64,000 nt of DNA, taken from NCBI RefSeq assembly GCF_006345805.1, contig NC_043008.1, positions 6,758,001 through 6,822,000 of the forward strand. The letters are read 5' to 3'. The translations under genes and the position numbers were made by a program. This stretch comes from Octopus sinensis (lineage: Eukaryota). How positions within the stretch are numbered: position 1 is the stretch's first letter; every line of letters starts with the position of its first letter. The notes under the pieces are model-generated. The model ran no database searches. It was not told the origin of the DNA and worked only from the letters and a program-made list of their open reading frames with translations. This document shows, piece by piece, positions 16,119-64,000 of the stretch.

Positions 16119-16745
16119 TCCTTTCTACTGTAGGCACAAGAACTGAAAATTTGGGGGAGGAGATTACTTCGACCCCACTGCGTAGCTGGTACTTAATTTA
16201 TCGACCCCCAAAGGATGAAACGCGAAGTCGATCTCGGCGGAATTTGAACCCAGAACGTAGCGGCAGACGAAATACCTATTTCTTTATTGCCCACCAGGGG
16301 CTAAACATAGAGAGGACAAACAAGGACAGACAAACGGATTAAGTCGATTATATTGACCCTAGTGTGTAACTGGTACTTAATTGATCGACCCCGAAAGGAT
16401 GAAAGGCAAAGTCGACCTCGGCGGAATTTGAACTCAGAACGTAGTGGCAGACGAAATACCGTTAAGCATTTCGCCCGACGTGCTAACGATTATGCCAGCT
16501 AACCCTTTCTATTATAGGCACAAGGCCTGAAATTTTAGGGGAGGAGATAAGTGGATATCATCGACCCATTACTCAACTGGTACTTATTTTATCGACTCCG
16601 AAAGGATGAAAGACAAAGTCGACCTTGGTGAGATTTGAACTAAGCATTTTCCCCGACGCTAAGCATTTTTCTCTTTTAATTTTGTCCTGGGGCCAACAAT
16701 TTTGAGGAGAGGGACAAAGTCGATGGAATCGACCCTAGTAGTCGA
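16119..16745 (-). mobile_element. SINE A cluster: A1 with nested A2 module (from 16277) plus two further partial copies
   Basis: Family A body repeated. The A2 tail tatttctttattgcccaccaggggctaaac starts right after cagacgaaatacc. Confidence 0.9.
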
Positions 16746-19366: not shown

Positions 19367-19830
19367 GTCTTTGCTAGTATATACGCAGTGAAGCTATACA
19401 CAATAGCGTCGTATTTATTACGATTGCTATTTACCAGTAAATATTGGTGCCTTGTTGTGCCATTTATCTACTTTTATATGTATAATTTTACCCTTATGGG
19501 CTATCTTTTACTAGAAAGTAATACATTCGTATTGCATTATTATTTTCATTGAAACTTCTTCACAGTTTTCGTTCTGTTAACGTTTTGGCGTTCATACGAG
19601 TATACTGGTATTGATGTGGCAACATTTGAAATCTTGTCTAGGTAAATGCAGCTGATGAAGACTAATCAAATTTACGTTGTCAAACGTATTTGAAGAGTCA
19701 GAAACCGGTCCTGCATTATCCAATTCTGGGTTGTCCATTTATCTAATGTTCTTCCTAGAGGTAAGACGAAATTATTTTCATGTTTGTTGCACACACGCGT
19801 CTTTGCTAGTATATACGCAGTGAAGTTATA
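19367..19830 (+). mobile_element. Terminally redundant 432-bp unit containing an HHR (Penelope pLTR/retrozyme-like)
   Basis: 32-bp direct repeat gtctttgctagtatatacgcagtgaagYtata at 19367-19398 and 19799-19830. HHR at 19645-19717. Confidence 0.6.
19645..19717 (+). ncRNA. Type I hammerhead ribozyme motif with palindromic stem III
   Basis: aatgcag-CTGATGA-agact..tcaaat.tacgtt(gtca)aacgta.tttga..agtca-GAA-ACCGGT-C-ctgcatt. Perfect 7-bp stem I, long stem II, GUC cleavage triplet. One mismatch or extra base at the base of stem II. Confidence 0.75.
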
Positions 19831-19842
19831 TATATATTTCAT

Positions 19843-20332
19843 GGCTCTCCGTCGGTTACGACAACTAAGGTTTCACTTGATCCGATCAACGGAACAGCTT
19901 GCTCACGAATTTAACATGCAAGTGGCTGAGCACTCCACAGACACGTATACCTATTTCTTTATTACCCACAAGGGGCTAAACACAGAGGGGACAAACAAGG
20001 ACAGACATAGGTATTAAGTCGGTTACATGGGCCCCAGCGCATAACTGGTACTTTATTTATCGACCCCGAGAGGATGAAAGGCAAAGTCGACCCCGGCGGA
20101 ATTTGAACTCAGAACGTAACGACAGACACGTATACCCTTAACGTAGTTCTTGGGGGAGATTCAGCGTGATACAGAGTGTGACAAGGCTGGCCCCTTTGAA
20201 AATACAGGTACAACAGAAACAGGAAGAAATGTTTTCGCTCCATAAACACTCACAGCACCTGGTCTAGGAACCGAAACAGCGATCCTACGACCATCAGTTC
20301 GCCGGCCTAACCACTGGGCCATTGCGCCTCCA
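19843..20332 (-). mobile_element. SINE family C head with tail D, interrupted by a SINE A2 insertion
   Basis: Head (minus) tggaggcgcaatggcccagtggttagg..gtttcggttcc. The tail matches the uninterrupted fragment at 55991-56145. Confidence 0.85.
19952..20121 (-). mobile_element. 5'-truncated SINE A2 with 15-bp target-site duplication
   Basis: Exact direct repeat acagacacgtatacc at 19937-19951 and 20122-20136. Confidence 0.9.
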
Positions 20333-21129
20333 CTATTATTCAACTAAAAGTAATTAATTAAAAATCATTCTTCATAAGCTAATTACTATCACACATGTTC
20401 CTTTTATAGTGTTTTTATGGATGTGCGTGCGTGTGTGAGTGTGTTACTGCAGCTTTGCGTGTATGAATGTGTGCGTGTTAATTAGAACATAGGTGTATAC
20501 TTATGTGCACACCTGTGAACTAAAGTATATGCATGCATTCGTATAGTTATATATAAGTATATGATTGTGTGTATGTTCGTGTGTCTAAGTGTGTGTGCGT
20601 AGTTTTATGTATGTGCGTGTGGTTGTGCAGATGTATATATATATATATGCAAGTGTTCTTTGAATGCAAGTAGATATACGTGTAGTACGTGCGTAAGAAT
20701 GTATTTACGTGTGTGCGTATGCGTACGAATATGTACTTGCGTGAGTGGTCCGTATGTGCATGGGTTCTTACTTGCATGTGCGTATATGTGCGTATATGCG
20801 CACGATGTGCGTGTGTGTTACGCAGAGGCTTTTGAAAGTGTTTGCTACACGTAGAGAGTCGCTAGTTTTCTCACGAAGATTTCCCTCCGAGATAAAAGTG
20901 TCTGCTTCAGCTGGTACCTTCGTCTCTCGCGTCTTGTTCTTTTATATTTTCTATCTCTCATTTTTTTTTCTGTGACGATTTAAACATGATCTTCAGACAA
21001 TTTTATTCACACAGTTGTTTGCTAACAAGCGTGTGAAGAACGTTTTTAGTGCATTATCGTATAAACACGTGGCGAGGATCCCTTGCCACGCTCCCTCAAT
21101 GCGTTTATGATAGCTTCTGTATATTTGCG

Positions 21130-33711: not shown

Positions 33712-33950
33712 TAGCGCAGGAGCGGCTGTGTGGTAAACGGTTGCTTACAAATCACATGTTTCCGGGTTCGTATATATGTATGTGTGTCCGTGTTTGTCCT
33801 CCCCCCTTCAACATCGCTTGACAACCGATGCTGGTGTGTTTACGTTCCCGTTACATTAGCGGTTCAGCAAAAGACACCGATAAAATAAGTACTAGGCTTC
33901 CAGAAAATGAGACCTGGGGTCGATTTGCTCGATTAAAGGCGGTGCTCCAG
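33712..33950 (+). mobile_element. Internally deleted SINE B
   Basis: Head agcgcaggagcggctgtgtggtaa..ccgggttc joined directly to the second half catcgcttgacaaccgatgctgg..ggcggtgctccag. Confidence 0.8.
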
Positions 33951-33954
33951 GGCC

Positions 33955-34338
33955 AGACGATTACACTGACTCCAGTGTTTAACTGGTACTTAATTTATCG
34001 ACCCCGAAACGATAAAAGGCAAAGTCTACCTCGGCGGAATTTGAACTCAGAACATAAAGACAGACGAAATATCGCTAACAGTTTCGCCTGGCGTGCTAAC
34101 GTTTCTATTTCTTTACTACCCACATGGGGCTAAACACAGAGGGGACAAACAAGGACAGACAAACGGATTAAGTCGATTACATCGACCCCAGTGCGTAACT
34201 GGTACTTATTTATTCGACCCAGAAAGGATGAAAGGCAAAGTCGACCTCGGCGGAATTTGAACTCAGAACGTAACGGCAGACGAAATACGGCTACGCATTT
34301 CGCCCGGAGCGCTAACGTTTCTGCCAGCTCTCCACCTC
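33955..34338 (-). mobile_element. SINE A1/A2 nested dimer (junction at 34105/34106)
   Basis: The A2 tail tatttctttactacccac follows gctaacgtttc of the A head. Confidence 0.9.
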
Positions 34339-34944
34339 GGTACTGCAGCAATATTCTCTATCCAAAAATACCCGAGTGTTTATCGTTGCTTACATAACGT
34401 TACAACGTATTGGTAAGTTATTACTGTTACTGAAGATCCACTGATTCTGATGTTTTTCTTTGTTTCTTACCATTTTTGTTCGAAAACTTGATTCAATTTT
34501 TCTATCTGTTTCTTTCGTTTATAAGAAATTGTTTTGCAGTTTCCTTTGAATCCTTTCAATTTTGAACTGGATTTAATATATTTATTTTCATTTCCTGGGA
34601 AGTCGACTTTATCGTTCCAAACTCTATCATTCCATCTCGTAAATATTTAACAAAATAATAATGATAATAAAAAAAGAAATTCTAAATTAAATATAACTTT
34701 GCAGAGTGGTCTATCTCAATACAGAAGCAGTGAGATAAAAGTAAAGTGACAGGAATATTAAAAAACGAAATTAGAAACGACGCAATGATGTTTCTGTAAA
34801 GACAAGGTAACGAAATAAAATTGAACCAAATAGAAACCGCGCTGTAATGAAAATGTGCGGAACCAGTGTCGCGTAAATCGAAACACACGCACACACATAT
34901 ACACATATACGCATACATGCACACAGGCATACTTTTACGCATAT

Positions 34945-38159: not shown

Positions 38160-39050
38160 TGAACGACGAGCTGGCAGAATCGTTAGAACGCTGGGAGAAA
38201 TGCTTCTCGGTGTTTCGAACGTCTTTACGTTCTGAGTTCAAATTGCGCAGAGGTCGACTTTGCATTTCATCCTTTCGAGATTGATAAAATAAATACCAGT
38301 TTAGCACTGAAACCAATGTAATTGACTTACCCACTTTTCCGAAATTGCTGGCCTTGTGCAAAAAAATTAAAACCAATATTGAGCTCGCTTAGAGGCAGCG
38401 AGCTAGCAGAATTGTTAGCATGCGGGGGAAAATACTTAGCGGTATTTTGTCTGCTAGCACGTCCTGAGTTCAAATTCCGCAGAGGTCGACCTCGTATTTC
38501 AACCTTTCAGGGTTGATAAAATTAGTACCAGTTGAAAGGCGGCGAGCTAGCAGAAACATTAGCACGCCGGGCGAAATACTTAGGGGTATTTTGTCTGCTG
38601 TTACTTCTGAGTTCAAATTCCGCAGAGGTTGTCTTTGCCTTTCATCCTTTCGGGGTCGATAAATTAAGTACCAGTTATGCACTGGAGTCGATATAATCGA
38701 CTTAATCCGTTTGTCTGTCCTTGTTTGCCCTCTCTTTCTTTAGCCTCTTGTGGGCAATAAAGAAATAAGAAACATTAGTACGCCGGGCGAAATGCTTAGG
38801 GGTATTTCGTCTGCCTTTATGTTGTGAGTTCCAATTTCGCAGAGCTCGTCTATGCCTTTCATCCTTTCGGGGATCGATAACTTAAGTACCTGTTGCGTAC
38901 TGGGGTCGATCTAATCGATTCCCCCCACCGCCAAATTTCGGGCTCTGTGCCTAGAGCGGAAAAGCATAAGTACCAGTTGAGCTCTGGGGTCAACTTAACT
39001 TCTCCACCGAAACTGCTAGCCTTATGCCAAACTTTGAAATCAATATTAAG
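38160..39050 (+). mobile_element. Head-to-tail pile-up of SINE A copies, including an A2/A1 dimer (38536-38960)
   Basis: At least four repeats of gagct.gcagaa..ttctgagttcaaatt..ttcatcctttc.gg.tcgataa. The A2 tail ends at 38767. Confidence 0.9.
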
Positions 39051-40737: not shown

Positions 40738-41080
40738 CGTCTGCCGCTACGTTCTGAGTTCAAATTCCGCCGAGGTCAGCTTTGCCTTTCATAGTTTCGG
40801 GGTCGATTAAATAAGTACCAGTTACGCACTGGGGTCGATATAATCGACTTCATCCGTCTGTCTGTCCTTGTTTGTCCTCCCTGTGTTTAGCCCCTTGTGG
40901 GTGGTAAAGAATTAGGTATTTCGTCTGTCGTTACGTTCTGAGTTCAAATTTCGCTGAAGTTGACTTTGCCTTTCATCCTTTCGGGGTCGATAAATTAAGA
41001 ACCTGCTACGTACTTGGGTCGATCTAATTGACTGGCTCCCCCCCCCCACCAAATTTCGGGCCTTTTGCCTAGTGTAGAAA
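40738..41080 (+). mobile_element. SINE A2/A1 dimer, 5'-truncated
   Basis: A2 tail ..gtgggtggtaaagaatta joined to ggtatttcgtctg at 40915. Confidence 0.9.
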
Positions 41081-42814
41081 AAAATAATAAGCAGTAGTAA
41101 TAATATGCCCTTCCTGTTGCTGTTATTGCAAGTGATGAGGCTGCAAGGGAAAAAGAACGTGAAGTCATTTCCCCAAAACTGTTTTCCTACCTCACTGAAT
41201 TTAAGTAACAAATGTACGCGACCCCACATTATAGGCTGGAAACGTATGACTACATGACACTCATACGTTTTCGGAGTTAATCTAATGGGAAATAAAACAG
41301 GAGCGCAGTTTCACCTCGTCAAATGTATAACATTCTTTATGCTCTGGCGCCAGCACTTCTGACTTTAACAACGGCGAACTATCTGATGTTTATGCATTTA
41401 TTCTGTAAATAATGTCTAATAGGCTTATTTGTTACCGAAGCGCCAGGCCTTAATTACAAGAAAGAGAATAGGAGAGTGCAGGGGATTTCCATCTCTTCTG
41501 AATGTCCGAAGTAAAGAGAATTGATATTTCTTTCGTTAAGTGCTTGCACTTTACTTTACAGCTCTCACCACGCGCTTGTGACAATAATAGCCATGAACAG
41601 AACCATGTATAAGTAATGTCTCATAGATCAGCAAATATCTAAACCGTTCTTTTGACTGGCAAGAATCATTGCTTAATCCTGTTTTGCTTCGCCTTCGGCC
41701 TTCGCTTCTATTCCAATATCTGACTACTTATTACAGCATAAATCTTTCCAAGAATTTCTAGTCACATACAGCATCTGACCATGCAAGTATATTTAAAGTG
41801 AAAGTTGCACGAGTGAATTATAAGAGTTGTGTTGTAATAATGTTGAAGCTGGAACGCAATTAAAACCCTGCCATGTCACATCAACCACCAAATGTGCTGC
41901 TGCCAACGATACAAATCTATTGCCATTATTGTGCAGACAGCAATTGAATGCCGAAATAGCTGCGGTACAGCATTAAATTTCCATCGTTTACAGCCGATAA
42001 TTACAATAAAATTGATGTATTTTAACAGAATAATCATTCACTATAACTAATATATTGAAAAATAGCTCTTCAAGCTTCCATTAGGATACTATCATTTGAA
42101 ACTATGACCAAATTCGTATAATAATAGAACAATTAGCTAAAACATTGCGATTACGCTAGCATATATTTCCGGTGTTAGGAAACGGTATTCTCGCTATCGT
42201 TACAAATTTAGAATATCTTCTGACATTGTTAATGTAAAAAACAGAAATGTAAAAATCATTTGTTTGCTTTTCGGCTACGTATACGCAGCCATAGTCTTTG
42301 TTGTTCATGCGCATCTATGGCTAATTAACTCAGAAATATCTCATGAAGACTATGTTTATAACATAGGCACTGGCACTCTGAATTATAGGAAAAGCGAAAT
42401 TACAATTGTTGATGTTTATGGCTTGTGAAGAGGATTATTGGTGGAAATGGAGCGAAATTGATTCAACCGGAAATCCACACCAGAAGTAAAGTATTCTGCT
42501 ATTGCTATTTTCAAACATTAAATTAACTCTAATAAACTCGCTACTCATTCAAGCTCATCTTTCACTAAATATCATTCGACTCTACCCCACCGTATTCAAC
42601 ACTTCTCTCCCTTAATTGTAGACATCCAAGTATGTTTACTACTATTCATTATAATGAACTCTCTAATTTCTTGAAATTATCTCCCCTTTTTTGGTGTTGG
42701 TGAGGAAACGGGAGATGGTAATAATTAGCACTAGGTTTTTGTTTTCTTTCTTCAACTAAAATGGATGTTTCAGTTAGTTAAAAACGCTTCTAAGTAGAAC
42801 GTCCTTGAGAGTCC

Positions 42815-50784: not shown

Positions 50785-50975
50785 ATTTTTTTACTACCCA
50801 CAAGGGGCTAAAAAAGAGAGGGCAAACAAGGACAGACAAACGGATTAAGTCGTTTACATCGACCCCAGTGCGTAACTGGTACTTAATTTATCGACCCCGA
50901 AAGGATTAAAGGCAAAGTCGACCTCGGCGGAACTTGAACTCAGAAGGTAAAGACGAAATATCGCTAAGGATTTCA
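50785..50975 (-). mobile_element. SINE A2, 5'-truncated, solitary
   Basis: A2 tail ttactacccacaaggggctaaa..caaggacagacaaacggattaag, preceded by gtataccc. Confidence 0.85.
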
Positions 50976-55990: not shown

Positions 55991-56145
55991 GGTACTCCGT
56001 CGGTTACGACGACGAGGGTTCCATTTGATCCAATCAACGGAACAGCCTGCTCGTGAAATTAACGTGCAAGTGGCGGAGCACTCCACAGACACCTGTACAC
56101 TTAACGTAGTTCTTGGGGAGATTCAGTATGACACAGAGTGTGACA
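55991..56145 (-). mobile_element. SINE tail D fragment (uninterrupted)
   Basis: Colinear with 19843-19951 plus 20137-20185, without the A2 insert. Confidence 0.85.
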
Positions 56146-61930: not shown

Positions 61931-62180
61931 ATTTGAATGAAATGCACAAGGAATTTAAAGTAGACAAATCCTAATAGGCTTCTGTTATTTAGAACATATT
62001 AGGGACAAATTAATCGTTTATCTGCTGCAATGTGATAACTAGAACCAAGACATGAAGACGATGATGCCCGTTCTGACAGTTGAGGCTTTAGCGATCTGTT
62101 TCTAGACGCCAAGTCATCGGTAGTTAAAGATGTAAGCGTTCAGAGATGATAGAGATATGGAGTGTTATGAAACAACATAG

Positions 62181-62563
62181 TTTCTACTCTAGGCACAAGG
62201 CCCGAAATTTTGGTGGAGGGGGCCAGTCGATTAGATCGACCCCACTACGCATCTGGTAGTTAATTTATTGACCCAGAAAGGATAAAAGGCAAAGTCGACC
62301 TCGGCGGAATTTGAACTCAGAACATAAAGACAGACGAACTACCTATTTCTATTTCTTTACTACCCACAAGGGGCTAAACACAGAGAGGACACACAAGGAC
62401 AGACGAACGGATCAAATCGATTATATCGACCCCAGTGCGTAACTGGTACTTAATTTATCGACCCCGAAAGGATAAAAGGCAAAGTCGACCTCGACGGAAT
62501 TTGAACTTAGAACATAAAGACAGACGAACTACCGCTCAGCATTTCGCCCGGCATGCAAACGTT
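62181..62563 (-). mobile_element. SINE A1/A2 nested dimer (junction at 62343/62344)
   Basis: cagacgaactacc occurs on both sides of the A2 module. Confidence 0.9.
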
Positions 62564-64000
62564 TGGAGGCAATACAATTTTAAGCATGTGTTTTAGCTAT
62601 TTTGTGTTTTGCCATACAATTACCAAAGTTTAAATTCTGTCTGTCTGTCTGTCTGTCTCTCACACACACATAATTGGCTTATATACAATATACACATTTG
62701 TGTGTGCGTGGGTGCCTTTTCTGCTTAAATATGTAAACATGCACTAATGAAATACTAATATAAATATATATATTATATGGTGAAATGTGTATATGTGCAG
62801 AAAGAAGTGTGTGTGTTTGTATGAGAGAGTAAGAGAGAGACAGAGAGAGAGAAAGAGAGAGAGACAGAGAGAGACAGAGAAAGAGAGAGAGAGAGAGAGA
62901 AATAAGGAGAGAAAGAAAGAGATGAACGAATGAGATGGTGTAAAATTGTCTGCAGCCAAGAGGAAGGAGAATGCATGTCTCGAATGATTTGCGATATAGT
63001 ATTTAGGTTCGGGAGATTGGTTATTATATCGAACCAGCAAACGATGAATTGTAAAACAGAACCAAAAACATAGGAGAAGAATAACAACATCAACAAAAGC
63101 GGGATATTTGAAAAAAAAAAAGAAAAAGTAAAGAAAAATCCCCCTCCTAAATTGCGAAGTAAAACGGAGGTGTCATGATTACTTCCGGAAATAATGCGAA
63201 ATTCACTAAATTCGTGGAAGGTTTAATTTGAAATAAATTAACTGAGTTATAAAACATTTGAGAACAATTGTGACTATTATGAAGATTTGAATATGCAATA
63301 AATATGAGTTTGGTTTAATAACACTCCATTTAAAAATCTTTCCTTTTGTAATTGAATAATCAGTTTAAATATTCAAATAAAAATGAAATAATTACGTGAT
63401 TTGTTTTTGGTATAATGTTGCGTTTAATTATAATTAAGCGAAATTATAAAAAATGCAAAAAGTAGTCCAAACTTTGGAACGATGTAGTGACACACAGCGT
63501 ATAACCATATTGACCCTTTATCTAAAGAGATGGCTATTGGTCTTCTTAAATATCTCTCTGCCTTCCCATGCCCTCTGTCCCCCTCTCTTCCCTCTCAGAT
63601 ACATAAATACAAACGTACAGAAGAATCGTTTGAAAGTCATAATATCCATAATCTCCCGTTCCTCTAGATTAGAGGTGCACCCTCTTTGCTGTAGATATAA
63701 TACATAGCGTTTGATTGAAAGCCATGAGTTCAATCGCATTTTCTCGACATCTTTTATCACAAAACAAGTCATTGACTTTCATCCAGAGAAACTATGTCGT
63801 TCACCGATATATGGCCAAATAGTTCTACACACACACACATTTATTCATTCATAAGCCTGAGGGAGAGAGAGAGAGAGATGGGAGGAGGAGGGGGTATATA
63901 TCGTTCAGAGATGAGAGAAACGCAAATGTACCCTACCACATATGTCCATTTTAAGAATGAATATCCGAGTGAAACAAGAGTAAAGGCCTGGGAAAGCCAC

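Follow-up and report, generated by a model that had tools for sequence, protein, structure and literature searches.

Results

The window that we analyzed, a stretch of 64,000 nucleotides from Octopus sinensis, contains at the flagged locus a 170-bp 3' piece of the SINE A2 that lies on the minus strand within SINE D, a separate SINE with its own tRNA-like head (Table 1). The piece is bounded by two exact copies of ACAGACACGTATACC, a repeat of 15 bp and no longer that occurs nowhere else in the window, as the sequence-only reading had it. This A2 copy is a member of the youngest lineage (A171/C173/A175, A221), and the GTCTG of the 5' TSD copy matches A2 positions 56 to 60, which amounts to a microhomology at the truncation. 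What had been read as the empty site is a paralogous D copy with a diverged site rather than an orthologous empty allele. The usual D site is GGTAC, with 13,595 exact degenerate matches genome-wide that, among the matches listed, mostly read GGTACACGT. With 47 exact A2 junctions in the whole genome for 13,595 intact exact sites, this site is hit about as often as any GGTA. The D insertion had been put forward as a case of a general logic, with microhomology at the truncation, and this did not hold up: 27 of the 30 D-site junctions that we read are full length or nearly so, starting at A2 position 10 or earlier, and the GTCTG truncation was found only in the window copy (1/30), a one-off that we rejected as a rule. 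The flagged locus is thus a true nested insertion, but an atypical one.

All seven A2 3' ends in the window read as previously described. They are followed by GGTAT at 16277, 19952, 40914, and 50785 (where the boundary is uncertain by one base), by GGTAG at 62344, and by (A)GAAACRTTAG at 34106 and 38767. It had also been claimed that six of the seven lie inside another SINE, which is correct except at 40914, where A2 is followed by A1 but is not visibly inside it since the copy is 5'-truncated and no host head can be seen. In the element at 38538, AGAAACATT and TTAGGGGT are read in both copies (shared variants), and in the dimer at 62177 the tail contains GAAATA twice.

Table 1. SINE features in the window (positions are those of the window)
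Feature	Position	Strand	Remark
Host SINE D, 3' part (tail)	19827..19936	-	
TSD, 3' copy	19937..19951	-	Begins GGTAT
5'-truncated A2 SINE, consensus 62-231	19952..20121	-	Ends precisely in AAAGAAATA
TSD, 5' copy, 15 bp	20122..20136	-	Reads GGTATACGTGTCTGT on the minus strand
Host SINE D, 5' part (tRNA-like head and body)	20137..20335	-	5' end approximate
Paralogous D copy without insert	55991..56145	-	Site diverged
Seamless head-A2-A1 dimer	16120..16500	-	Junction 16277/16276, head site 48
Full A2, then A1 from head site 15/16	33900..34336	-	Junction 34106
A2, then A1 from head site 15	38538..38985	+	Junction 38767
5'-truncated A2, then headless A1 (site 48)	40739..41085	+	Junction 40914
A2 at a non-SINE GGTAT site	50785..50973	-	
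Head-A2-A1 dimer, host variants common to both site-48 copies	62177..62564	-	Minority TSD-like type

A2 Is a Short, Noncoding SINE

The A2 consensus (231 bp, the majority of 138 near-full-length copies) represents a short, noncoding, dispersed family of high copy number, with 72,574 exact 24-mer tails genome-wide. Exact patterns were counted in the entire 2.72-Gb assembly, and about 2 Mb of stretches were analyzed, 810 kb of which lie at random positions and the rest around listed matches, mostly on contig C1; the samples are biased to this contig and to young, exact-tail A2 copies. The 3' end of A2 is precise and fixed, with no variable tail, its TSDs are 11 to 23 bp long in 63 of 65 cases (32 bp in the other two), and 76 of 87 insertions in foreign DNA with a TSD are full length, the family showing some 5' truncation. 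In copy number, variable-length TSDs, fixed 3' end, and occasional 5' truncation, A2 is as expected for a tRNA-derived SINE using TPRT. Positions 11 to 21 and 73 to 85 are what we take, by eye, to be A-box-like and B-box-like sequences; ARAGORN reported 0 genes in the window, and Rfam gave no match at 33900-34400. Five short A2 motifs had no match in one MetaSINE supplement of PMC4824008, where alignments may be pictures, and the A2 family itself has very likely been cataloged already.

A search for a partner LINE with the A2 tail found none among 275 tail matches in 1.4 Mb and none among 50 of 59,986 candidate RT loci, these 50 belonging to a few families. The tails differ from that of A2 both in the young CR1/L2-like family and at the RTE-like loci that we inspected, with clades named by eye. 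The tails of A1 (GGC-CTTGT-GCC) and A2 (GCCC-CTTGT-GGGT/C) each form a short hairpin with the loop CTTGT (e.g., window 16120-16300), a candidate signal for one partner LINE. The best RT matches (L311-L340) are all on unplaced contigs and are distinct from the LINE families of the chromosomes, one being followed by rRNA-like sequence, and these are possibly DNA of another organism in the assembly. Another set (L341-L360) represents a young LINE family present on many chromosomes, with copies 94 to 99% identical, open frames of up to 958 aa, and an (ATT)n tail.

A2 Insertions Are Biased in Foreign DNA and Concentrated at Two Family Sites

The target bias first noticed in the window extends to the whole genome, where 44,270 of the 72,574 exact A2 tails are followed by GGTA. 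As many as 25,765 continue as GGTATTTYRT, the sequence at family position 48, so that a single family site accounts for 35% of exact tails. When 251 A2 ends were sampled, 117 ran into sense family sequence (96 of them at register 48) and 132 into other DNA. Junctions picked by their flank were excluded from the register counts, as well as from the lineage, foreign-target, nearest-relative, and random-sequence counts.

At foreign ends, we detected TSDs without using their first four bases, which yielded 65 TSDs at 131 ends (null 8/2,596). The four bases are nevertheless identical in both TSD copies in 57, 60, 59, and 63 of the 65 cases, respectively, which shows that the motif belongs to the target; GG was rejected as a fixed part of A2 because it is present in the upstream TSD copy. 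A larger foreign set gave TSDs at 87 of 182 ends. Excluded from these sets were low-complexity TSDs and ends without a TSD of at least 7 matches (66/131 in the smaller set and 95/182 in the larger). The upstream TSD copy starts with GGTA in 24 of the 87 (109-fold over a background of 0.25%), so the enrichment outside family A that the sequence-only reading had asked to be checked is present. Where the TSD copies differ in bases 1 to 5, the GGTAT base is in the 3' copy 19 times and in the 5' copy 8 times, which is borderline (P = 0.052). Beyond GGTAT, foreign targets resemble site 48 weakly (next base in 19/37 vs. 36%, the one after in 11/19 vs. 43%), and the T excess near -10 is slight (42 to 43% vs. 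32%). A broader motif, NRTA, fits 52 of the 87 foreign TSDs. Since this core is common to A1 and A2 TSDs, much of the motif may be the endonuclease's. Two A2 insertions (L017 and L192) occurred independently at the same GGTATGCATGG site of another repeat.

Within the family, targeting is much narrower. In sense family sequence continue 143 of 329 A2 ends, all at register 15/16 (10 ends) or 48/49 (133 ends). A second sense GGTA, at A2 position 217, occurs in 247 units and has more homology upstream but was used in 0 of 329, which implies that motif and homology are insufficient for targeting. The random 810 kb contain 41 intact site-48 GGTA with 21 junctions (a figure somewhat inflated by local duplication), 84 antisense GGTA of these elements with 0 junctions, and approximately 4,000 other GGTA with 8, site 48 being roughly 250-fold more occupied than the latter; 17 of 131 family elements carry a site-48 junction. 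A single A1 host (L269:1724-2200) was struck twice, in sense at site 48 and in antisense at a core GGTAC.

One explanation of these data is that the endonuclease alone chooses the target, i.e., that one or more partner LINEs recognize longer cutting motifs (C|GGTATTT, AGAAAC, and TATAT) that the SINE head happens to contain, with different lineages having used different LINEs, so that nesting would be real with no RNA guide. The NRTA core is in line with this idea, as are the similar AATA/ATTA starts that follow A1 tails, and cutting might be helped by the position of site 48 on the 3' arm of an imperfect palindrome, a 12-bp hairpin with a predicted -7.3 kcal/mol as DNA. However, foreign targets constrain little beyond GGTAT, and yet site 48 has the large excess of occupancy given above. 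This, together with the lineage differences that follow, leads us to consider targeting by the endonuclease alone unlikely.

Target Choice Tracks the A2 Sublineage

GGTAT describes the target for only part of the family. Copies with T219 are followed by GGTA in 61% of cases and use head site 48, and copies with C219 favor AGAA and head site 15. In the first 100 listed of 18,551 exact C219 ends (hand tally, with a pattern that does not allow C at five flank positions and with some overlap with loci sampled elsewhere), we counted AGAA 39 times (21 at head site 15), TA 23 times, and GGTA 8 times. The same differences are seen at TSD-verified foreign targets, which start with GG in 18/26 and AGAA in 0 for the youngest lineage, with GG in 1/24 and AGAA in 6/24 for the C219 lineage, and with TA in 6/11 for the CCT lineage (permutation P = 0.0002 for the lineage effect). 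In other words, the motif that each lineage uses in foreign DNA is identical to that of its favored family site. Three of the four lineage groups are similarly diverged (4.7 to 5.4%) yet differ in target start, and both observations argue against a role of the endonuclease alone. Nearest A2 relatives within 2% have a start class in common in 14 of 15 pairs, compared to 4.0 when shuffled, a result that may be driven by one young GG lineage. CpG decay was rejected as the cause of the lineage differences, the 3' copy following A, not C. Instead of read-through, the source of the AGAA starts could be repetition of the tail unit AGAAATA, which is doubled at 62344.

A common A2 variant, T43G/G48C, alters both sides of a predicted head hairpin pair; positions 43/48 read TG in 94 copies, GC in 55, and the mixed combinations TC in 5 and GG in 1. 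Because the change destroys the GGTA site and just 3 of 136 site-48 junctions read CGTA, copies carrying it may be largely immune to self-insertion.

A2-A1 Dimers Are Very Probably Nested Insertions

The A2-A1 elements had been interpreted as A2 insertions in preexisting A1 copies rather than as offspring of a dimeric master, and the ages of the two halves bear this out. Divergence in 50 head-A2-A1 dimers is 9.1% for the A1 half, about threefold that of the insert (3.3%), with no correlation between them (rho 0.03, n = 50), the partner being older in 32 and the insert in 10. The A1 partners have three host tail types and are star-like, with no clusters and a mean pair distance of 0.151. The GGTA at T50 was kept by 29 of 30 partners, as opposed to 46 of 86 lone A1. 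A fixed two-part master is expected to give halves of the same age, one partner type, and clades, and A2 departs from such a dimeric SINE on each count.

We weighed against this the scenario in which dimers move as units, descending from a dimeric master or from many nested sources by 3' transduction or template switching, so that the A1 half did not preexist. Tail type a is over-represented among partners (10/14 vs. 11/52 monomers), which counts against nesting; about half of the heads are wholly A2-type, the copy at 40914 has no host head, and 29 of 53 dimers have outer TSDs, some of them perfect. Outer TSDs had been named as a possible refutation of nesting, which is invalid because a host keeps its own TSD after insertion. 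Perfect outer TSDs are actually less frequent in dimers (9/26) than in A2 monomers (37/59; P = 0.02), and for both of the A1 partners searched, which come from dimers with perfect outer TSDs and are the strongest transduction candidates, the best other match is 89% among 40 scored candidates each. Considering also the older, diverse partners, movement as units seems very improbable. At one dimer locus (L272), contigs from 4 of 21 listed runs (3 other organisms) included none that spans the element, which is swamped by paralogs, the family being abundant in those runs.

Arrays tell a similar story. Of 40 head-(184 bp)n arrays, 28 end in a unit older than the first and 6 show the opposite order, which again runs counter to movement as units. 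Among 93 adjacent A2 pairs in arrays, the tail haplotype differs in 62 and private changes are common to both units in 15. As most arrays mix lineages and are younger at the 5' end, they point to repeated insertion rather than duplication; pure local duplication was rejected as their origin, with the 15 pairs looking locally duplicated. An example of local amplification is a locus on contig C1 (G000:C1:8970099-8971807) with 10 A2 units that have changes in common. Together, these findings make it highly probable that A2-A1 dimers are nested insertions.

The Crossover of the Seamless Join Usually Lies Upstream of the Nick

Classical nesting, in which the insert brings a second head, is rare (2/94, 3/56, and 54 exact matches genome-wide). 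The seamless junction had been attributed to annealing within the identical 13-nt target, which seldom fits: in hosts reading T61/T63, the left copy retains both host alleles in 3 of 40 rows and has those of A2 in 30 (1 of the 40 is a misaligned duplicate), and the crossover usually lies upstream, in the 47-nt head. In 10 hosts of types that usually have T19 and A36, the head keeps T19 in 5 and A36 in 0, placing crossovers in hosts with diagnostic heads 5' of position 36, and the A2-specific G43/C48 pair is found in the heads of 4 of 10 diagnostic-host dimers. Head divergence fits a host/insert mixture that is 45 to 65% host-derived. On the basis of these head alleles and head divergence, the crossover is usually upstream of the nick or the whole head is replaced; head-body linkage among A2 lineages is too weak for crossover mapping.

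We prefer annealing of the cDNA at integration as the cause of the join because the youngest inserts (1 to 2 changes in 152 nt) are already seamless. Tandem heads are, however, unstable, and in an alternative scenario a full-length A2 at site 48 would create two tandem heads of approximately 65 bp that are later collapsed by slippage or single-strand annealing. Later collapse would replace only the annealing step and is compatible with RNA-guided priming. Of approximately 30 double-head loci, 7 have expanded to arrays of 64- to 67-bp heads, which keeps this route in play, and the mixed heads and the predominance of full-length insertions in foreign DNA are consistent with it. It is nonetheless the less likely route, given the seamless youngest inserts, the 54 exact double-head matches against 25,765 site-48 junctions (pattern stringency differs), the lack of expansion in most survivors, and the retention of host A36 in 0/10, below the prediction for uniform crossovers. 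Minisatellites of 64- to 67-bp SINE heads (G000:C3430:1376-2204, C1:195358959-195359247, and C7:15322788-15323081) were apparently born from double-headed nested insertions.

Discussion

We propose that A2 piles up at sites 48 and 15 of its own family because the flank on read-through RNA pairs with the nicked target, which we regard as somewhat more probable than not from the junction sequences. In such a scheme, 1) a partner LINE would nick at a loose NRTA(T)-like motif, and 2) Pol III would continue past the end of the element into its 3' flank, which is GGUAUUUCGUCUG... for a source at site 48 and AGAAACGUU... for one at site 15. By established Pol III rules, an A2 transcript would carry its flank since the A2 consensus has no TTTT, and neither do 98 of 136 site-48 flanks within 120 nt; read-through transcripts would extend into GGUAUUUCG or AGAAACG flanks. 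Then, 3) the flank would pair with the primer strand, over a long stretch at family sites and with a resulting bias of 2 to 5 nt at foreign ones, and 4) the cDNA end would anneal to the homologous head of the host upstream of the nick, yielding a seamless join with loss of the host sequence between crossover and nick. Because the A-like and B-like boxes flank site 48, the seamless join yields a complete A2, and 5) with A box, B box, and the same downstream flank, it would become a new source with the same preference. This loop would be self-reinforcing and build head-(184 bp)n arrays, sometimes extended by local duplication.

The landing site would be inherited because read-through RNA pairs with the nicked target, as in R2, and we lean, by a modest margin of belief, toward a target choice that is RNA-guided and passed on. 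More tentatively, and with slightly less than even confidence, we suggest that each SINE lineage uses, as a 3' read-through guide, the sequence of the site where its ancestor landed, and that it targets this site again in its own family, regains a complete promoter by exchanging heads, and passes the preference on, which would make it a natural programmable guide-like loop with tens of thousands of events.

Both pairing steps of our proposal have a precedent in R2, as far as the sections consulted of the two papers go. In R2Ol and R2Bm, the read-through RNA carries downstream target sequence whose annealing to the target improves both accuracy and efficiency (PMC6795142). Upstream cDNA homology has been proposed to form a heteroduplex that makes the 5' join precise and whose failure occasionally results in tandem duplications (PMC3774820). 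R2 differs in being autonomous, with a site-specific endonuclease and one fixed target (28S rDNA), while A2 is nonautonomous and without coding capacity, follows a loose motif, and lands in its own family at two lineage-dependent sites, and elsewhere about half the time (132/251 ends at nonfamily sites). By analogy, A2 may thus work partly like R2 and is not a member of that group. In RTE-related Tn-TA SINEs, according to the portions compared of Nishiyama and Ohshima 2018 (PMC6007223), TSDs are 10 to 20 bp long with a biased start that correlates with the RNA 3' sequence, via pairing or cut-site selection; self-nesting is absent from those portions. A2 is not an RTE-related SINE of this type: it has no variable microsatellite tail and a slight T excess near -10, its TSDs start with G in 49%, and its bias spans 4 to 5 nt and is lineage specific. 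Squamate SINE-derived satellites are tandem arrays of SINE parts, as described in the part of PMC10702118 consulted. A2 resembles them in the 15/93 adjacent pairs with common private changes and in its 65-bp head arrays, and is unlike them in that most adjacent pairs (62/93) differ in tail haplotype and arrays are younger at the 5' end.

Other precedents are more distant. Chimeric L1/Alu elements, in which the cDNA is joined to an upstream homologous element, are rare by-products, and self-nesting Zepp in Chlorella and Tx1-clade elements that target other repeats are autonomous and enzyme specified. A2 has in common with these systems insertion in preexisting copies and a 5' join driven by homology, in which part of an older copy is replaced, and differs from them in the 35% of exact tails at one family site. 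Octopus SINEs are mentioned only in passing in the parts consulted of PMC4758252 and PMC4824008, and our literature search, with most subscription papers beyond its reach, found no account of such targeting or self-nesting in cephalopod SINEs.

The relative weight of the endonuclease and of RNA-DNA pairing in target choice is an open question, posed in PMC6007223. A2 makes it testable from genome data alone since it offers tens of thousands of events and sister lineages with the same tail and different targets. If the guide effect is true, it would be relevant to RNA-templated gene insertion tools. Repeat libraries will mis-call A2-A1 dimers as families, and seamless nesting hides insertions and distorts age estimates. 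Nesting of this kind is a route to dimeric and multimeric SINEs and to chimeric heads without a master copy.
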